From an uncultured delta proteobacterium (GTDB taxonomy: Bacteria; Desulfobacterota; Syntrophorhabdia; Syntrophorhabdales; WCHB1-27), in NCBI GenBank assembly GCA_963810935.1, contig CAWEPK010000008.1, positions 736,001 through 800,000 of the forward strand: a DNA stretch of 64,000 bases, in the 5' to 3' direction. How positions within the stretch are numbered: position 1 is the stretch's first letter; each line of letters opens with the position of its first letter. Made by a program: the position numbers. Shown here one piece after another: positions 33,101 to 39,100 of this stretch.

Positions 33101-36100
33101 GGGCCGTGCCCGACATGGACACAGCCTACGTCGAAAAATCCTTGAACGCGGACCTCGAAAAGCCTGGTATCAAGGTGGTCGATCAGGGCAACGTCAAGCA
33201 GGCCCTGACAGACGCGCCGAAGAAAATGAGCGCGGAATATTATGTCCCCTGCGTCGCCCACATTACGATGGAGCCGATGAGCTGCGCGGCATACGTGCAG
33301 GCGGACAAGTGCGAGCTGTGGGCGCCGACGCAGACCCAGACCGTTTCCATGGTGGTCGCCTCTAAGGTGTCCGGTTTGCCGATGAACAAGATCGAGGTCA
33401 ATACGCCCTTGCTCGGATGCGGTTTCGGAAGGCGGGCACAGCAGGACTATACAGCCGAAGCCGTTTCGGTGTCAAAGGCCGTCGGTAAACCGGTCCAGGT
33501 ATTCTGGACGAGGGAGGACGATATCAAGTACGACGGCTTCCGGGGAGCGGCCGCGCACAGGGTGGAGGCGGCCGTAGATACCCAGGGGAAGCTGGTTGCC
33601 TGGTCGCACAAGCTCGCCGCCACTTCTATTTTGCGGGACCTCAACCCGGGCGCGATAAAGAACGGCATCGATTATTACTGCCTGTGGGGCCTTGCGGACG
33701 CCCCCAACTCCCCTACGTGGAACTGCAATTTCCAGTACGAGACGCCGGGCCTGTATATCGAGCTGCTTGCTCTCCTCGCTGCCCGTGACGTGCCTGCCCT
33801 GGAGGTCGGTGCAGAACGGCCCCAACGCCTTCGTCATCGAGTCCTTCATCGACGAGCTTGCCCGCGCGGCCGGCAAAGACCCGCTGGAGTTCCGCCTGCT
33901 CAACCTGAAAAACAACATGCGGGCGAGCCGCGTGCTGAAGGTTGCGGCTGAGAAAGCGGGCTGGGGCAAGCCCCTTTCGAACGGCCATGCCCTGGGCATC
34001 GCCCAGCACGCCTGCTTCGGGACTTACGTGGCCCAGGTGGCCGATATCTCCGTAGACAAGGCCGGCGGAAAGATAAAGGTGCACAAAGTCGTTGCGGCCG
34101 TCGATTGCGGCCCTGTGGTCAACCCCGGTCCGCTGGTCGACCAGATACAGGGCGCCATCATAATGTCGCTGAGCGCCGCGCTCAAGGAAGAGGTGAAGTT
34201 TGCAAAAGGCGGCGTCGCCTCGTCGAACTTCGATAACTACCCCATAATGCGTATGAGCGAGGCGCCCGAGATAGACGTGCATATCGTAAAGAGCACGGAG
34301 AAGATCGGCGGCATCGGTGAGGTCGGCGTTCCCGCTGCGGCGCCGGCCGTGGCGAACGCGCTGTTCGCGGCCACCGGCGTCCGCATGAGGCGGCTGCCGA
34401 TGACTCCCGCGAATGTGCTCAGTGCGTCGAAAAAGGCTTGAGGAGTAGATACTCTTTTCGACTGGCCCGCCCGATTTCCGGGCGGGCCGTTTCTCTAAAA
34501 CCGACCGGGGAGGGCGAGACATGAAGAAGTCGCTTGGTGCAGGTGTATTCGTCGGCGCGACAATAGTGTGGGTCGTGGGAACGTACGATAAGGAAGGCAA
34601 GCCGAACCTCATGACAGCCGCCTGGGGCGGTGTCTGCTGCTCCGACCCGCCCTGCATCGGCGTCTCGTTAAGGAAGGCTACGTACAGCTACTCCTCGATA
34701 GTCGAGAGGAAGGCGTTCACGGTAAGCATACCGCCTGCGGGTTATGCGAAGGAGACGGACTACGCGGGGATCGCCTCGGGCAGGGACATAGACAAGTGGC
34801 AGGCAACGGGCCTCACGCCGGAACGGAGCAAGCTGGTCGACGCGCCCTACGTTGCGGAATTCCCCCTCGTCATCGAGTGCCGCCTCGTCCACACTATAGA
34901 GCTAGGGCTGCACACGCGCTTCACAGGCGAGATAGCCGACGTAAAGGCGGACCCTTCAGCGCTCGGAGAGGACGGCGCAATCAACATAGAAAAAGTCGAC
35001 CCCTTCTTCTACATACCCGGCATCCGCACCTACTATCGGATAGGCCCCTACCTGGGGAAAGCCCACTCGATGGGCGCGGGCCTGGCGAAGACCCGGAAAT
35101 AGCCTGTTCCCGCCGCAAGGGCCTATCAGACATCTTTCTGTTGACATGGACGCGCGCGTGGTATAAACAATATTAACAGTACATCAATGGGCGTAGGATG
35201 GCTCATTTGAGCCGAGAAGGGAAGCCGGTGTGATTCCGGCACGGACCCGCCGCTGTGAATGGGGACGAAACCCGGACGTATTGCCACTGGGCCGTATGCA
35301 TTAGACGAAACGGCCCGGGAAGGCGCGGGGATTAGGACGATCCATTAGTCAGAAGACCTGCCGCTGCCCACGGTAAAACTTGGAGAGAAGGTAAATCCCC
35401 AGGCTGACAATGTCGGTCCGGGGATTTTTTTTATTGCCCCGCCGGCGAAAGGAGTAGGAAGTGGCTAACGAGATTTCAATAAAGATCACGCCCGAGAACT
35501 GCCGGGGCTGCCGGCGCTGTCAGCTCGCCTGTTCCTCCTACGACCCGGGCCCGCTCAACCCGCGCCTCGCGGGGATCCAGATCCTGAGGCTCGATGACGA
35601 AAGCGGGGAATGGCCGGTCGTCAACATGGAGTGCCTGGAGCGGTTCTGCGGAAAGTCGAATGCGCAAATCGGCGCAGAAAGCAAGCCCGCGTGCGTGGCA
35701 GCCTGCCTGTTCGGCGCGCTGGAAATGGAAAAGGAATTACCCAATGAAGAAGAGTAAGAAGTGGTACGGATGGAGCGGCACTATCCTGGAGGTCGATCTT
35801 ACCGGCGAATCGGTCCGGAAGGCTGAGCTTTCCGAGGAGCTGGCTTACAATTACCTGGGACAGGCGGGGATCAACGCGCGCATATTGCACGACCGCATCC
35901 GTCCGGATATGGACCCTCTGGCCCCGGAGGCGCCGCTGATCTTCGGCGTCGGCCCCCTGGGCGGCACGCTCGCCCCATGCTCCGGAAGGCTTTCCGTAAC
36001 GTTCAAGTCGCCCCTCACCGGCATATTCGGCGACTCCAACTGCGGGGGCCACTGGGCCTCCGAGCTGAAGATGGCCGGATACGACCATATCGTCATCACC

Positions 36101-39100
36101 GGAAAGGCAAAGCACCCCGTATATCTGTGGATCGACAATGATAAAGTGCAGGTGCGCGACGCGCGGTCCATCTGGGGAATGAGCACATGGGAGACGGACG
36201 AGGCGGTCCGGGACGACGTTGGCGAAAGGACCGCCCAGGTGGCGTGCATAGGACCGGCGGGCGAAAACCTCGTGCGGTTCGCCGCGATCATATGCAACCG
36301 GGCAAGGGCTGCGGCGCGATGCGGTCCGGGTGCTGTCATGGGATCGAAGAACCTCAAAGCGATAGCCGTGCGGGGTGACCGGGGCATAAACGTGGCCGAC
36401 AAGCCGGCCCTGCGCGATGCAGTGGACGAAGCAGTAAGCGCCATCCTGGCCGATCCGCTTTATCAGTCGGCCAGCTTGTATGGGACACTTGCCATCACGC
36501 CGCTGGCGCAGGCCCTTGGGTTCCTGCCCACCCGCAACTTTCAGGAATCGACTTTCGAGGGCGCGGACGGGCTGTCTGGAGAGGTCTTCATAAAACAGTT
36601 CGCCACCCGGCACAAGGGGTGTTACAACTGCCCCGTCGCGTGCAGCAGGTTGTACAAAGTCGGCGAAGGGCAGTACGCGACTGCGGGCGAAGGCCCGGAA
36701 TACGAGACGGTATCCGCCTTAGGCTCAAAGTGCGGCAACGGCGATTTCGAGTCGATCCTTCATGCCAATACGCTCTGCAACCAGTTGGGGATGGATACCA
36801 TCTCGACGGGAAACGTCCTCGCCTGGACAATGGAGTGTTATGAAAAAGACATACTGAGCAAAGAAGACCTCGACGGCCTCGACTTGCGCTTCGGCAACGC
36901 GGAGGCGATGGTCGAGATGATCAAGAAGATCGCGGCGAGAGACGGCCTGGGCGATGTGCTCGCCGAAGGCGCGTACAGGGCCGCGCAGCAGCTCGGCGGC
37001 GACGCATTCGTGGTGCACGGCAAGGGCATGGACTATCCTGCCGTCGATACGAGGGGGACGAAAGGCATGGCCCTCTCCTTCTCCGTCTCGCCCAGGGGCG
37101 GGGACCATCTGAAAGGTCTCTCCCTCTATGAAGTGGCGCCCGACGTCTACGCAGGGGACATCAGGAAGGAGACGGGCATAACCGTCACGCCGCAGTACTG
37201 GCTACAATACGAGACCAAGGCGGAATTGATGCGCTGGCATGAAAACTGGCACTGCGTAGTCGATTCACTCGGCCTATGCAAGCTGGAAGGAATCGCTCTC
37301 AAGCCGCTTTTGCCTAGACACTTTCAGCGTCTGCTCTCGGCTGCGACCGGATGGGGCCCATCGGTTGCGGACCTTGAGACGATCGGGGAAAGGATCTGGA
37401 ACCTGGAGCGCCTGTTCAATATAAGGGAAGGTATGGGCAGGCAGGACGACCTGCCGCCCCGCCGCCTGCTGGAAGAGCCCATCGCGACGGGGCCTGCAGA
37501 GGGGGAGCGGCTTGACCGGGGCCGGTACGAGCGGATGCTCACCGACTATTACCGGCTGCGCGGATGGGACCCGGAGACAGGCGTGCCGACCGGAGAAAAA
37601 CAACGCGAGCTGGGATTGGCCTGAAGTGTACTATCCGTACCGCGTCCTGAAGAACTGGTAGAAAAAGGCGACGGTAAGTCCGAACAGCATGTGGTTAAGG
37701 AGCCCGGCAACAAAGGCGGCCGGCCCGAGGAGCTTCGTCATATAAAAGCCCGGAGCGGTGACGACACCCGTTCGCAGACCTGCGTGGACTAAAGGCAAAG
37801 CGCCCATAAAAATGCCCAGGATCAGCCACTGGATCACGCTGAAGAGGAGGCCGAAGCGGTAACCGGGCCATCCGACGCCGGCCGACCAGAGGGCCGCGTA
37901 AATAAACGTAAACCCGACGCCCCAGACGAAGAGAAGAGTAAAGCCGAGGGGTTTGTTTTCTCTCCTCGTGAACATGGTGCTCAGATAGCGCTCCATGCCC
38001 ATCAGGTTCATCGTCGTGAGCCGCGTAGTTACGAATAAGACTCCTGTTGCCGCTAGACCCGCTATGAGAGCGCCCGGTATGCTCATTTATATAGGAAACC
38101 TGCGTATGGACTCAAAGGTTTTCAAGGTTGACAAACAGGCCTCCCTGCACGAATATTATTTATAATGCGTAAAATGCGGCGTTCATTGGTTGTCATCTGG
38201 CTGCTTCTACTTGCGCTGCCCGTGCAGGCAGGGGCCGGGCAACCTTATCAGCAGGGAATAGAAGTAGGTATGAGGGGCGAACGTTACCCGGCGCCCGGCC
38301 AGAAAATAATTGCTGCGTCCGGTTCCCTGACGGGCACAGACGTCGTCGATCCGCAAAGGACTCGACTATGCAGGATCGACAGCATCGTCCTCGACCTCGC
38401 ATCCGGTTATATATCCTACGTAGTGGTCCAACCAGGGACGAACGACCGCCTCATCCCCATACCTTTTAGCGCGTTCAGGGCCACACCGGGAAAACAGCTC
38501 GTCCTCGATATCGACGAAGGCAGGATCTATACGGCGCCGAGCTACCCTAAGGACGCGAAGCCGGACTGGGCCGACCCTGTCTTCAGCCAAAACGTGGCGG
38601 CCTTTTGGGGGACCTTGCCGGCAGGGATTGCAACGGCGCGGACGCAACAGCAGCAGCCACAGTCTCCATCGACAGGGTCTAAGTGATCACCCGTGTTGCC
38701 GTCACATCTTCAGTGCTTCGGCTTTCAGAGAGACGCGCAGCGCATTTCCCGTCACCGTGATACTGCTCGCGAACATCGCAAATACAGCCAGGAGAGGATT
38801 GAGAAACCCCGACGCGGCTGCCGGAACGGCAATTGCGTTATAGAAAAAGGCAAACAGCAGGTTCTGCCGCATGGAGCGGGCTGCGATGACGGAGAGCCTG
38901 TAGGCGTCGAGAAATAGAGCGGGGTCGGACGTCGTGAAGCTGAGATCGCACGCCTCGCTCGACAAACCAACAGCGGCACTGACGCCACATCCCACGTCTG
39001 CTGCCGCGAGGGCGGCTGCATCGTTGATGCCGTCCCCGACCATTGCGACCTTGCGGCCGTCAGCCTGTAAGGCGCGGATGATCCCGACCTTATCCGCCGG

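Follow-up and report, generated by a model that had tools for sequence, protein, structure and literature searches.

A cobalamin riboswitch cassette encoding a small iron–sulfur protein and an AOR-type aldehyde:ferredoxin oxidoreductase

A cobalamin riboswitch precedes two overlapping genes

We analysed a 64-kb stretch of DNA (the window) from an uncultured delta proteobacterium of the order Syntrophorhabdales, in which an earlier survey of the genome had reported a cobalamin riboswitch ahead of a ferredoxin-like gene and an aldehyde:ferredoxin oxidoreductase (AFOR) gene. This arrangement, hereafter the cassette, was recovered with the same riboswitch score, the same weak 4Fe–4S motifs and the same overlapping gene with two AFOR domains (Table 1). 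In a scan with all Rfam families, RF00174 was the only family to reach its gathering score (31.5 bits) in the window, and the aptamer lies well above that threshold (E = 6e-24), matching model positions 1–189 of 189 without truncation. The Moco motif (RF01055) was found by the same type of scan neither in the window nor at any cassette locus. A promoter-like element ends 11 nt 5′ of the aptamer; its −35/−10 spacing of 15 nt is non-optimal, a consensus promoter scan did not call it, and we regard it as a weak candidate for the promoter of the cassette.

Table 1. Features of the cassette, in window coordinates
Feature	Position	Strand	Details
Promoter-like element	35141–35167	+	TTGACA 35141–35146; TATAAA-like −10 35162–35167; by eye
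Cobalamin riboswitch aptamer, RF00174	35178–35379	+	Covariance-model match, 100.4 bits
Expression platform, intrinsic terminator	35393–35432	+	Hairpin 35393–35427; 8 T at 35425–35432
Ribosome-binding site, AGGAG	35450–35454	+	Read from sequence; 6 nt 5′ of GTG start
Mini AorA-like Fe–S protein, 98 aa	35461–35757	+	GTG start; 8 invariant cysteines
AOR-type aldehyde:ferredoxin oxidoreductase, 626 aa	35744–37624	+	AFOR_N + AFOR_C; ATG at 35744

The terminator begins 14 nt 3′ of the aptamer and has an interrupted stem of 15 pairs that was found in both the minimum-free-energy and the centroid folds; we identified no convincing antiterminator in the leader. An aptamer followed by a hairpin and U-run was present in all 17 leaders from species genomes. 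Within the source genome, a near-identical platform lies behind the riboswitch upstream of a cbiMNQO-containing unit, and G-rich terminators of a similar kind lie behind the riboswitches for cbiM and cob genes. Terminator-type cobalamin riboswitches of Dehalobacter restrictus repress upon corrinoid addition (PMC4285132, in part). By analogy with these repressing elements, the cassette riboswitch is probably an OFF switch, in which case the pair would be made only under corrinoid shortage. The opposite polarity would have a simple metabolic rationale, with B12 inducing the AOR to oxidise aldehydes from B12-dependent diol, glycerol or ethanolamine lyases; B12-dependent dehydratases and lyases do yield aldehydes. 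However, we consider an ON switch very improbable. The terminator lies entirely 3′ of the aptamer, the same design as in the cob/cbi riboswitches of this genome, no cassette locus is flanked by eut or pdu genes and, to our knowledge, no cobalamin ON switch has been established in nature.

The pair resembles subunits of AOR complexes

The 98-aa protein matched Pfam 4Fe–4S families below threshold only (Fer4_6, 1.5e-4; Fer4_7, 2.2e-4). Alignment of 16 small-protein sequences revealed that its cysteines C14, C17, C20, C24, C58, C63, C78 and C82 are invariant, and the protein probably binds two [4Fe–4S] clusters. In a PDB profile search, the top five matches were all Fe–S subunits of AFOR enzymes: 8c0z_C (AorA; 1.3e-12), 9mqx_E (2.5e-9), 4z3w_E (1.8e-7), 6x6u_B and 6x1o_B. 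The protein aligned only with the first ~60 and last ~25 residues of AorA, the middle of which has no counterpart, and it has neither the length (~150–190 aa) nor the three or four cysteine groups of a full-length poly-ferredoxin. A truncated AorA-type subunit is a better description of it than a generic ferredoxin. We treat the protein as a predicted two-cluster electron-transfer subunit of the AorA/BamC/WOR5-B type (mini-ferredoxin). Its gene was present at all 17 species-genome loci that had upstream DNA.

The AFOR gene shares 14 nt with the small ORF, an overlap through which it is predicted to be translationally coupled. Both domains scored over curated cut-offs (AFOR_N, PF02730, 3.3e-81, 272.3 bits; AFOR_C, PF01314, 1.7e-139, 465.7 bits). 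The catalytic subunit aligned end to end with P. furiosus AOR (1aor, 2.3e-140), with the AOR complex 9mqx (chain D, 1.2e-136) and with AorABC of Aromatoleum aromaticum (8c0z_A, 6.7e-121). Its best PDB matches were four AORs (1aor, 9mqx, 9g7j and 8c0z), ahead of FOR, WOR83, BamB and WOR5, and on sequence grounds we assign it to the AOR subfamily rather than to FOR, GAPOR, WOR5, BamB or YdhV. NCBIfam equivalogs of other subfamilies scored far below their cut-offs (PRK09849, 254.9 versus 868; GAPOR_Arch, 53.7 versus 1300). In a residue-by-residue comparison with 1aor, the C-x2-C-x3-C motif, the distal cysteine, EGPEYE and GG-x-H were all aligned and conserved, and across 18 AOR sequences C293, C296, C300, C512, E319, E321 and H455 were invariant. 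From the P. furiosus structure literature, we take the four cysteines to be cluster ligands and the two glutamates and the histidine to be catalytic. Its bis-pterin cofactor is presumed to carry tungsten rather than molybdenum, given the family to which it belongs and the nearest relatives of known structure, whose entries are deposited as tungsten enzymes. The cassette differs from these complexes in its small protein of 98 aa with eight cysteines, compared with 152–192 aa for AorA-type small subunits (AorA presumably carries four clusters), and no gene for an AorC-like FAD subunit lies at the cassette.

The riboswitch stays with the cassette across two phyla

In an order-wide search of 96 genomes, the four close orthologues of the mini-ferredoxin described by the survey (G076, G075, G092 and G084; 68–75% identity) all had a same-strand RF00174 match of 103.8–115.7 bits upstream, and two homologues of 39–40% identity (L011 and L012) again had none. 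The linkage proved far wider than the five loci counted at that stage. The riboswitch lies directly upstream at 60 of 65 evaluable cassette loci, that is, loci with enough upstream DNA, the window included (17/17 loci from species genomes and 42/47 from metagenomes). The aptamers of the 59 other linked loci score 87–138 bits, and the linkage holds for AORs as little as 63% identical and in both Thermodesulfobacteriota and Bacillota; these observations favour selection on B12 control as such. Among the carriers are Syntrophaceae, Syntrophorhabdales, Desulfomonilaceae, Desulfatitalea, Desulfohalobiaceae-type MAGs and Bacillota (Peptococcaceae and Desulfallas). Membership of the B12 regulon stands, but its confinement to one lineage does not.

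In the AOR tree, 33 riboswitch-linked sequences formed a single clade (SH-like support 100) with the sequence from locus L120 and two that lacked upstream DNA; 20 other AFORs fell outside it. The riboswitch was absent from all 17 loci whose AFORs are more distant (≤45% identity). The source genome encodes ~7 other AFOR paralogues, none of them at its five cobalamin riboswitches. The earlier suspicion that the pair travels as a cassette was borne out: it occurs in 5 of 22 genomes of the family, a sample of 400 additional genomes from the phylum contained no copy, and the riboswitch stays with it while flanking genes differ between loci. Judged by phylogeny and gene context, the cassette is a mobile unit of single origin that has kept its riboswitch over two phyla. 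The 60 linked loci, the single clade and the retention of the riboswitch amid changing flanks support the view that this is a new cobalamin-riboswitch unit, distinct from known B12 enzymes, transporters and isozymes.

Three of the five riboswitch-less loci lie in B12-type operons. At two (L099 and L100), the 3′ end of cobT (DBI_PRT, ~1e-133) lies 20 nt upstream of the mini-ferredoxin gene on the same strand; at the third (L120), the pair follows an ABC ATPase, a CbiQ-type protein and an S-component-like membrane protein in an ECF-transporter operon. Elsewhere, hemC and hemA flank the cassette at L035, and a His_Phos_1 (CobC-family) gene lies near that of L079, a closely related locus in the same 90% mini-ferredoxin cluster.

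These data bear on whether the AOR is an ordinary catabolic enzyme with no mechanistic tie to B12, its riboswitch reading a proxy signal, for example B12 from syntrophic partners as a report of community state, and being retained by moving with the cassette. A patchy distribution, variable flanks and the many AFOR paralogues already in the genome are consistent with this idea. However, the strength of the aptamers at the other linked loci over such divergence, together with the fact that cassettes which lost the adjacent riboswitch moved into operons of the cobT or ECF type rather than unrelated ones, makes it improbable in our judgement.

Cobalamin riboswitches and B12 genes in carrier genomes

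We surveyed 40 other cobalamin riboswitches in 11 carrier genomes. Nearly all genes with a family match behind them function in B12 synthesis or uptake, including cobU, cobT, cobS, a CobC-like gene, cbiJ, cbiK, cobN, cbiP and cbiMNQ, as well as TonB-system, BtuCD-type and DUF4430 genes. The few other targets included radical SAM and NifH/NifD-like proteins, a 5′-nucleotidase, FeoA and TetR, and some ORFs had no match. Neither metE nor nrdD was among the targets of these 40 riboswitches, and the nrdD of the source genome lies at none of its five riboswitch sites. In each of three genomes (G485, G487 and G496) just two riboswitches occur, one at a cobU–cobT cluster on the cbiG contig and one at the cassette. 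CbiG is encoded in 17 of 19 carrier genomes, the two without a hit both being MAGs. Within the family it occurs in 14 of 22 genomes (4/5 carriers and 10/17 non-carriers), so that its co-occurrence with the cassette is weak because CbiG is common in the family anyway. The source genome has 14 ORFs with a B12-binding domain over cut-off, five of them of ~210–225 aa, and a CFeSP-like gene; by this gene content it is a heavy corrinoid user.

Such corrinoid use would fit a B12-sparing bypass, in which the AOR and mini-ferredoxin form a corrinoid-independent redox route, for example alcohol or methyl-group oxidation via aldehyde to acid, or the reduction of acids to dispose of reduced ferredoxin. 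This route would replace methyltransferase/Wood–Ljungdahl metabolism or methylmalonyl-CoA mutase routes, by the same logic as metE and nrdDG. AOR enzymes are catabolic and energy enzymes, and the cassette is mostly free-standing, outside cob operons. Genes for B12-independent alternatives are well recognised among riboswitch targets (PMC545781 and PMC3766115, each in part); like the cassette, the metE, nrdDG and nrdAB isozymes place an enzyme of neither synthesis nor transport behind a cobalamin riboswitch, with expression expected at low B12 (PMC545781, in part). In Desulfotomaculum (Desulfofundulus) kuznetsovii, a sulfate-reducing member of the Peptococcaceae, an alcohol dehydrogenase and a ferredoxin-dependent AOR provide a cobalt- and B12-independent methanol route in place of the corrinoid methanol methyltransferase route (passages of PMC5770442). 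However, that AOR was abundant both with and without B12, and the word riboswitch occurs 0 times in the paper, whereas the cassette has a riboswitch and no linked alcohol dehydrogenase.

Other observations also weigh against a bypass. Classical B12-independent isozymes were absent behind the riboswitches of the 11 carrier genomes, and the cobT fusion at L099 and L100 would be unexpected for a bypass enzyme. We know of no B12-dependent enzyme that catalyses acid/aldehyde interconversion, so a bypass would have to replace a whole pathway, not act as an isozyme; the cassette appears to lack the B12-dependent counterpart of the same reaction that marks the B12-independent isozyme class. Overall, we regard a bypass as the main rival of the supply reading given below, and as somewhat less probable than it.

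A possible role in cobamide supply

We tentatively favour the reading that the pair serves anaerobic cobamide supply as a redox helper repressed by B12, although we hold it at somewhat less than even confidence. In its favour are the terminator platform shared with riboswitches of cob and cbi genes in this genome, the conserved linkage within one clade, the cobT, ECF, hemC/hemA and CobC-family contexts, the supply genes behind most other riboswitches of the carriers and the presence of CbiG in most carrier genomes. On this view, the cassette would be a functional part of the cobamide-supply regulon rather than a substitute isozyme. Under corrinoid shortage, the riboswitch would let the AOR and mini-ferredoxin be made. 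The AOR would oxidise an aldehyde and load the dedicated mini-ferredoxin with very low-potential electrons, which would pass to reductive steps of cobamide synthesis or activation, for example the reduction of Co(II) to Co(I) that precedes adenosylation, or the radical-SAM and Fe–S enzymes of the pathway. A candidate specific to this pathway is the acetaldehyde released by CbiG at ring contraction (PMC7242693, in part), although the AOR could use any metabolic aldehyde. The acetaldehyde flux from corrin synthesis is tiny and AFOR paralogues are already present in number, which counts against a helper. The cobT and ECF contexts represent only 2 of 36 sequence clusters, because neighbours are unrelated at most loci, and we know of no role in B12 synthesis for any AFOR enzyme; both points also count against the helper, as do the weak co-occurrence with CbiG, the two carriers with no CbiG hit and an OFF polarity argued from analogy.

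The closest precedent in gene order is the fdx-aorA-moaD operon of Clostridia and Pelobacter, which likewise places a small Fe–S gene and an AOR gene behind a cofactor riboswitch, there a Moco/Tuco riboswitch (PMC3543383, in part; Clostridium scindens row in supplementary Table S1 of Sun et al. 2013, in part). MoaD-like genes occur at four cassette loci (L043, L049, L119 and L120), and a MoaD-family gene follows the AOR in Bacillota cassettes too. By contrast, the cassette has no Moco riboswitch, its RF00174 sensor does not match the enzyme's own cofactor and its Fe–S protein is the truncated form. The literature searched, which covers older riboswitch work incompletely, contains no earlier report of an AFOR pair under a cobalamin riboswitch, nor did we find in it a description of the connection between aldehyde chemistry and the supply of B12 to which this control in many anaerobic bacteria points.

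A more specific version of the helper reading, which we consider a long shot, is that the anaerobic cobamide pathway finds its missing low-potential reductase in the AOR and mini-ferredoxin. The two electrons from oxidation of CbiG acetaldehyde would then pass through the two-cluster protein to cobalt reduction ahead of adenosylation, or to Fe–S and radical-SAM enzymes of the pathway. If so, the pathway would recycle its own by-product as reductant.

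Architecture of the cassette

Scanning the whole window, we found RF00174, the cobalamin riboswitch, to be the sole Rfam family that reached gathering score. It precedes two genes that overlap by 14 nt and encode a small Fe–S protein (mini-ferredoxin) and a member of the aldehyde:ferredoxin oxidoreductase (AFOR) family assigned here to the AOR subfamily. Because the next open reading frame (ORF) lies on the opposite strand, the unit consists of these two genes. The hairpin behind the aptamer appeared in the minimum-free-energy and centroid folds alike. The survey's finding had reported weak Pfam matches for the small protein (Fer4_6, 1.5e-4; Fer4_7, 2.2e-4), AFOR_N and AFOR_C domains for the large one, and four orthologues in the family, each with a riboswitch. 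We reproduced the first figures exactly, both being below cut-off, obtained the same domains for the large protein and recovered the four orthologues with their riboswitches on a repeat search.

Features of the riboswitch–AOR cassette and the ORF that follows it
Feature	Position	Strand	Details
Cobalamin riboswitch RF00174	35178–35379	+	100.4 bits, E 6e-24, full length
Terminator, 15-pair interrupted hairpin	35393–35427	+	starts 14 bases past the aptamer; eight T to 35432
Ribosome-binding-type AGGAG	35450–35454	+	before the GTG at 35461
Small-protein ORF, 98 aa	35461–35757	+	GTG start
AOR ORF, 626 aa	35744–37624	+	ATG start
Next ORF past the AOR	37631–38086	-	opposite strand to the cassette

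Directly 5' of the riboswitch lies a flavin-reductase-like gene (34521–35102). The window also holds a xanthine-dehydrogenase-family molybdenum enzyme (31781–34441, +), with a 2Fe-2S subunit (31781–32251) and a MoCoBD subunit carrying a TAT signal (32248–33951). Its large subunit is apparently split into overlapping ORFs (32248–33951 and 33692–34441), suggesting a frameshift or an assembly error. A heavy-metal P-type ATPase (38702–41141, -) is apparently split into two overlapping ORFs as well, with HMA/TRASH-like domains at 40203–41141 and E1-E2 ATPase and hydrolase domains at 38702–40306; it adjoins cbb3-type oxidase genes (FixO-like, 42653–44065). The genome is otherwise of a strictly anaerobic type.

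An AOR-type enzyme and a miniature partner

The large protein aligned end to end with Pyrococcus furiosus AOR (1aor; 2.3e-140), followed in the PDB ranking by the AORs 9mqx, 9g7j and 8c0z and, lower down, by FOR, WOR83, BamB and WOR5. The C-x2-C-x3-C, distal Cys, EGPEYE and GG-x-H motifs were kept in the alignment to 1aor, and their positions were invariant across an 18-row alignment. Judged from this ranking and these motifs, the protein is an AOR-type enzyme, and its relatives point to tungsten as the metal.

The eight cysteines of the small protein were invariant among 16 aligned orthologues. The five best PDB matches of a profile of these orthologues were all Fe–S subunits from AFOR enzymes. 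AorA of Aromatoleum aromaticum ranked first (1.3e-12), and the others were 9mqx_E, BamC and two sequences of the WOR5 small subunit. Compared with AorA, the small protein covers the first ~60 and last ~25 residues and lacks the middle; in our reading it is a truncated 'mini-AorA' with two clusters. That it binds the AOR is suggested by its homology, its translational coupling and its strict co-occurrence with the enzyme. An AlphaFold2 model from the 16-row alignment had a mean pLDDT of 51.1, too low for a fold search. Metagenomes contained at least 99 clusters of the small protein at E 1e-10 or better, nearly all of 92–102 aa and, where named, annotated as 'hypothetical' or 'Fe-S-cluster-containing dehydrogenase component'. 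The small protein defines a new 95–100-aa subfamily of AFOR partner proteins. A metagenome contig with a distant homologue (L124; 35% identity) carries two fluoride riboswitches, at 3953–4016 (-, 38 bits) and 4389–4446 (+, 40.7 bits).

Conservation of the riboswitch linkage

A scan of species genomes with the AOR gave 36 loci, 19 of them at 63–84% identity. After two of the 19 with a cut 5' end (L042 and L055) were left out, all 17 others had RF00174 directly upstream on the same strand (102.5–137.5 bits), with the small gene between riboswitch and AOR (frameshifted in L051). At the 17 loci whose AFOR was at most 45% identical, the riboswitch was absent throughout. Scanning metagenomes with the small-protein alignment added 52 orthologous loci (L072–L123), of which L074, L095, L101, L110 and L119, with less than ~330 nt upstream, were left out; RF00174 reached gathering score directly upstream in 42 of the remaining 47 (first pass nhmmer). 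With the window included, the linkage held at 60 of 65 evaluable loci. Many of the cassette loci are close relatives, since clustering reduces the 70 loci with the small gene to 57 distinct sequences at 98% identity and to 36 clusters at 90%.

Five of the 47 metagenome loci had no adjacent riboswitch. One has the small gene without an AOR (L098) and another a more distant AOR (L107; 44% identity over 56 residues). The other three (L099, L100 and L120) lie within operons of B12 type. In L099 and L100, which belong to the same 90% cluster, the mini-ferredoxin gene starts 20 nt after the end of cobT (DBI_PRT, about 1e-133). In L120, the pair is preceded by genes for an ABC ATPase, a CbiQ-type protein and an S-component-like membrane protein, and followed by a MoaD-like gene and a second S-component-like membrane protein. 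The S-component-like protein of L120 had no sequence match in the PDB; the one lead to 'ECF transporter S component' came from a language model.

In a FastTree phylogeny of 56 AFORs, the riboswitch-linked enzymes formed one clade with SH-like support of 100, a value that comes without bootstrap and with long-branch warnings for the outgroups. This clade comprised 33 riboswitch-linked rows, L120 and two rows lacking upstream DNA; outside it were 20 AFORs, five of them paralogues from the genome of the window. The riboswitch–AOR cassette is real and strongly conserved, and it is a single-origin member of the riboswitch regulon.

Carriers include Syntrophaceae, Syntrophorhabdales, Desulfomonilaceae, Desulfatitalea alkaliphila, Desulfovermiculus, Desulfonatronospira, a Peptococcaceae MAG and Desulfallas sp. 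Bu1-1; two of them, D. alkaliphila M08but and Desulfallas sp. Bu1-1, are in culture. Occurrence is patchy: within the family, 5 of 22 genomes carry the cassette, and a sample of 400 further genomes from the phylum yielded no match at E 1e-12. The flanks vary between loci; when flanking ORFs from 19 loci were clustered, the only conserved neighbour of the gene pair was a MoaD-like gene, seen in Bacillota. The genome of the window encodes about seven other AFOR paralogues, each at 41% identity or less, and five cobalamin riboswitches; the cassette AFOR alone among its AFORs is riboswitch-linked. Hitch-hiking regulation would be another account of this linkage, but we consider it improbable, less likely than a role in cobamide supply or in bypassing B12.

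Direction of control

A strong hairpin and U-run followed right after the aptamer in all 17 species-genome leaders. Another riboswitch of the same genome (C7:97805–98009; L070:406–610) has an expression platform nearly identical to the AOR leader; behind it come a 30-codon ORF (L070:717–809), a radical-SAM/SPASM ORF within L070:815–2386 and, further along, genes for a 206-aa unknown, CbiM, a PDGLE protein, CbiQ, an ABC ATPase and an amidase. Similar terminators end the riboswitches of this genome before cbiMN and before the cobU-cobT-cbiP cluster. In Dehalobacter restrictus, cobalamin riboswitches of the terminator type were shown to mediate repression by added corrinoid (PMC4285132). From the 17 terminators, the likeness of the platforms and this precedent, we infer that the cassette riboswitch is an OFF switch. 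Folding six leaders, both in full and truncated, revealed no alternative pairing that recurred consistently as an antiterminator, so the assignment rests on analogy. The cassette riboswitch might instead be an ON switch for B12-dependent aldehyde producers, a reading that we regard as very improbable and less likely than either supply or bypass.

By appearance, the 30-codon ORF and the radical-SAM/SPASM protein behind C7:97805 are a peptide-maturase pair, and a riboswitch followed by a radical-SAM gene was seen again in genome G484 (L148). The C7:97805–98009 (+) riboswitch is back to back with one at C7:97536–97724 (-), 80 nt away, and the two head divergent units; an opposite-strand pair also occurs in L091, at 1–112 (-) and 363–565 (+).

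The B12 regulon of carriers

We surveyed RF00174 in 13 carrier genomes; for 11 of these, we annotated the genes that follow 40 riboswitches other than those of the cassette. Identifiable genes were those for synthesis (cobU, cobT, cobS, a CobC-like phosphatase, cbiJ, cbiK, cobN and cbiP/cobD) and those for cbiMNQ, TonB-dependent receptors, TonB/ExbB, FecCD/ABC and DUF4430 surface proteins. A few others encoded a radical-SAM protein, a NifH/NifD-like fusion, a 5'-nucleotidase, FeoA, a TetR regulator, DUF2162 or a Phenol_MetA_deg channel, and some ORFs had no family match. Neither metE nor nrdD was found behind any of the 40. In the genome of the window (93% complete), MetE was not found, NrdD is encoded away from all five riboswitch sites, and 14 ORFs with a B12-binding domain scored above cut-off. 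Three carriers (G485, G487 and G496) have only two riboswitches each: that of the cassette and one before a cobU-cobT cluster that shares its contig with cbiG.

Our tentative reading, held with less than even confidence, is that the cassette belongs to the part of the regulon that serves cobamide supply. When corrinoid is scarce, the AOR would oxidise an aldehyde and charge its dedicated low-potential mini-ferredoxin; cobalt reduction or Fe–S/radical-SAM activation are candidate electron sinks. Ring contraction by CbiG in the anaerobic pathway releases a fragment in the form of acetaldehyde (PMC7242693), which may be the pathway-specific substrate of the AOR. CbiG is encoded in 17 of 19 carrier genomes. 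This co-occurrence is compatible with a supply role but weak and not discriminating, because CbiG is also widespread in family members that lack the cassette (10 of 17; among carriers, 4 of 5). The main rival, a B12-sparing bypass of a corrinoid-dependent route, appears somewhat unlikely. It has a physiological precedent in the ADH/AOR methanol route of Desulfotomaculum kuznetsovii, although the AOR of that organism was abundant both with and without B12 (PMC5770442).

Three further arrangements were seen in these regulons. The riboswitch at C16:126944–127121 of the genome of the window (L071:145–322; 117.8 bits) precedes a CFeSP-like gene (CdhD and FeS domains), followed up to about L071:8863 by genes for a pterin-binding methyltransferase, HdrC- and HdrB-like proteins, an ArsR regulator and a 1469-aa HdrA-like fusion; this case is unusual in having a B12-using protein behind a B12 riboswitch, and its platform has no obvious terminator. 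In a Desulfomonilaceae carrier (L164; G486:C23:38558–42300), a riboswitch lies ahead of a gene for a 747-aa protein that fuses NifH-like and nitrogenase-component-1-like domains (ORF 624–2864) and a second component-1-like gene (ORF 2857–3741), with two more riboswitches just upstream on the same contig; this unit is a nitrogenase-like reductase under B12 control. Five carriers (G491, G497, G495, G488 and G494) have a separate riboswitch with cobT first (L155, L159, L160, L174 and L179, respectively), followed by 73–147-aa ORFs without a Pfam match or by a 288–369-aa unknown, which may be lower-ligand genes.

Discussion

Cobalamin riboswitch regulons serve as a route to discovering B12 biology. 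To our knowledge, nearly all of their conserved members belong to one of three classes: synthesis enzymes, transporters and B12-independent isozymes. The cassette, which pairs an AOR-type enzyme with a miniature ferredoxin of its own, falls outside all three. AOR operons under Moco riboswitches are known in the form fdx-aorA-moaD (Sun et al. 2013, Table S1; the Pelobacter carbinolicus genome paper, PMC3543383). In the supplement text of Sun et al. 2013, which may be incomplete, 'aor' occurs once, under MOCO, and not under Cobalamin. The operon type and the riboswitch class are thus both known, but full-text literature searches found no paper pairing a cobalamin riboswitch with an AOR, and older riboswitch papers could hold an earlier mention.

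As far as we know, the corrinoid reductase of the anaerobic cobamide pathway is still unassigned. If the cassette serves cobamide supply, it would point to an unrecognised redox or aldehyde step in that pathway. Should it instead act as a bypass, we know of no earlier pathway-level switch that spares B12 in the energy metabolism of syntrophs or sulfate reducers. Either outcome would be informative, and both are open to testing in the two cultured carriers.
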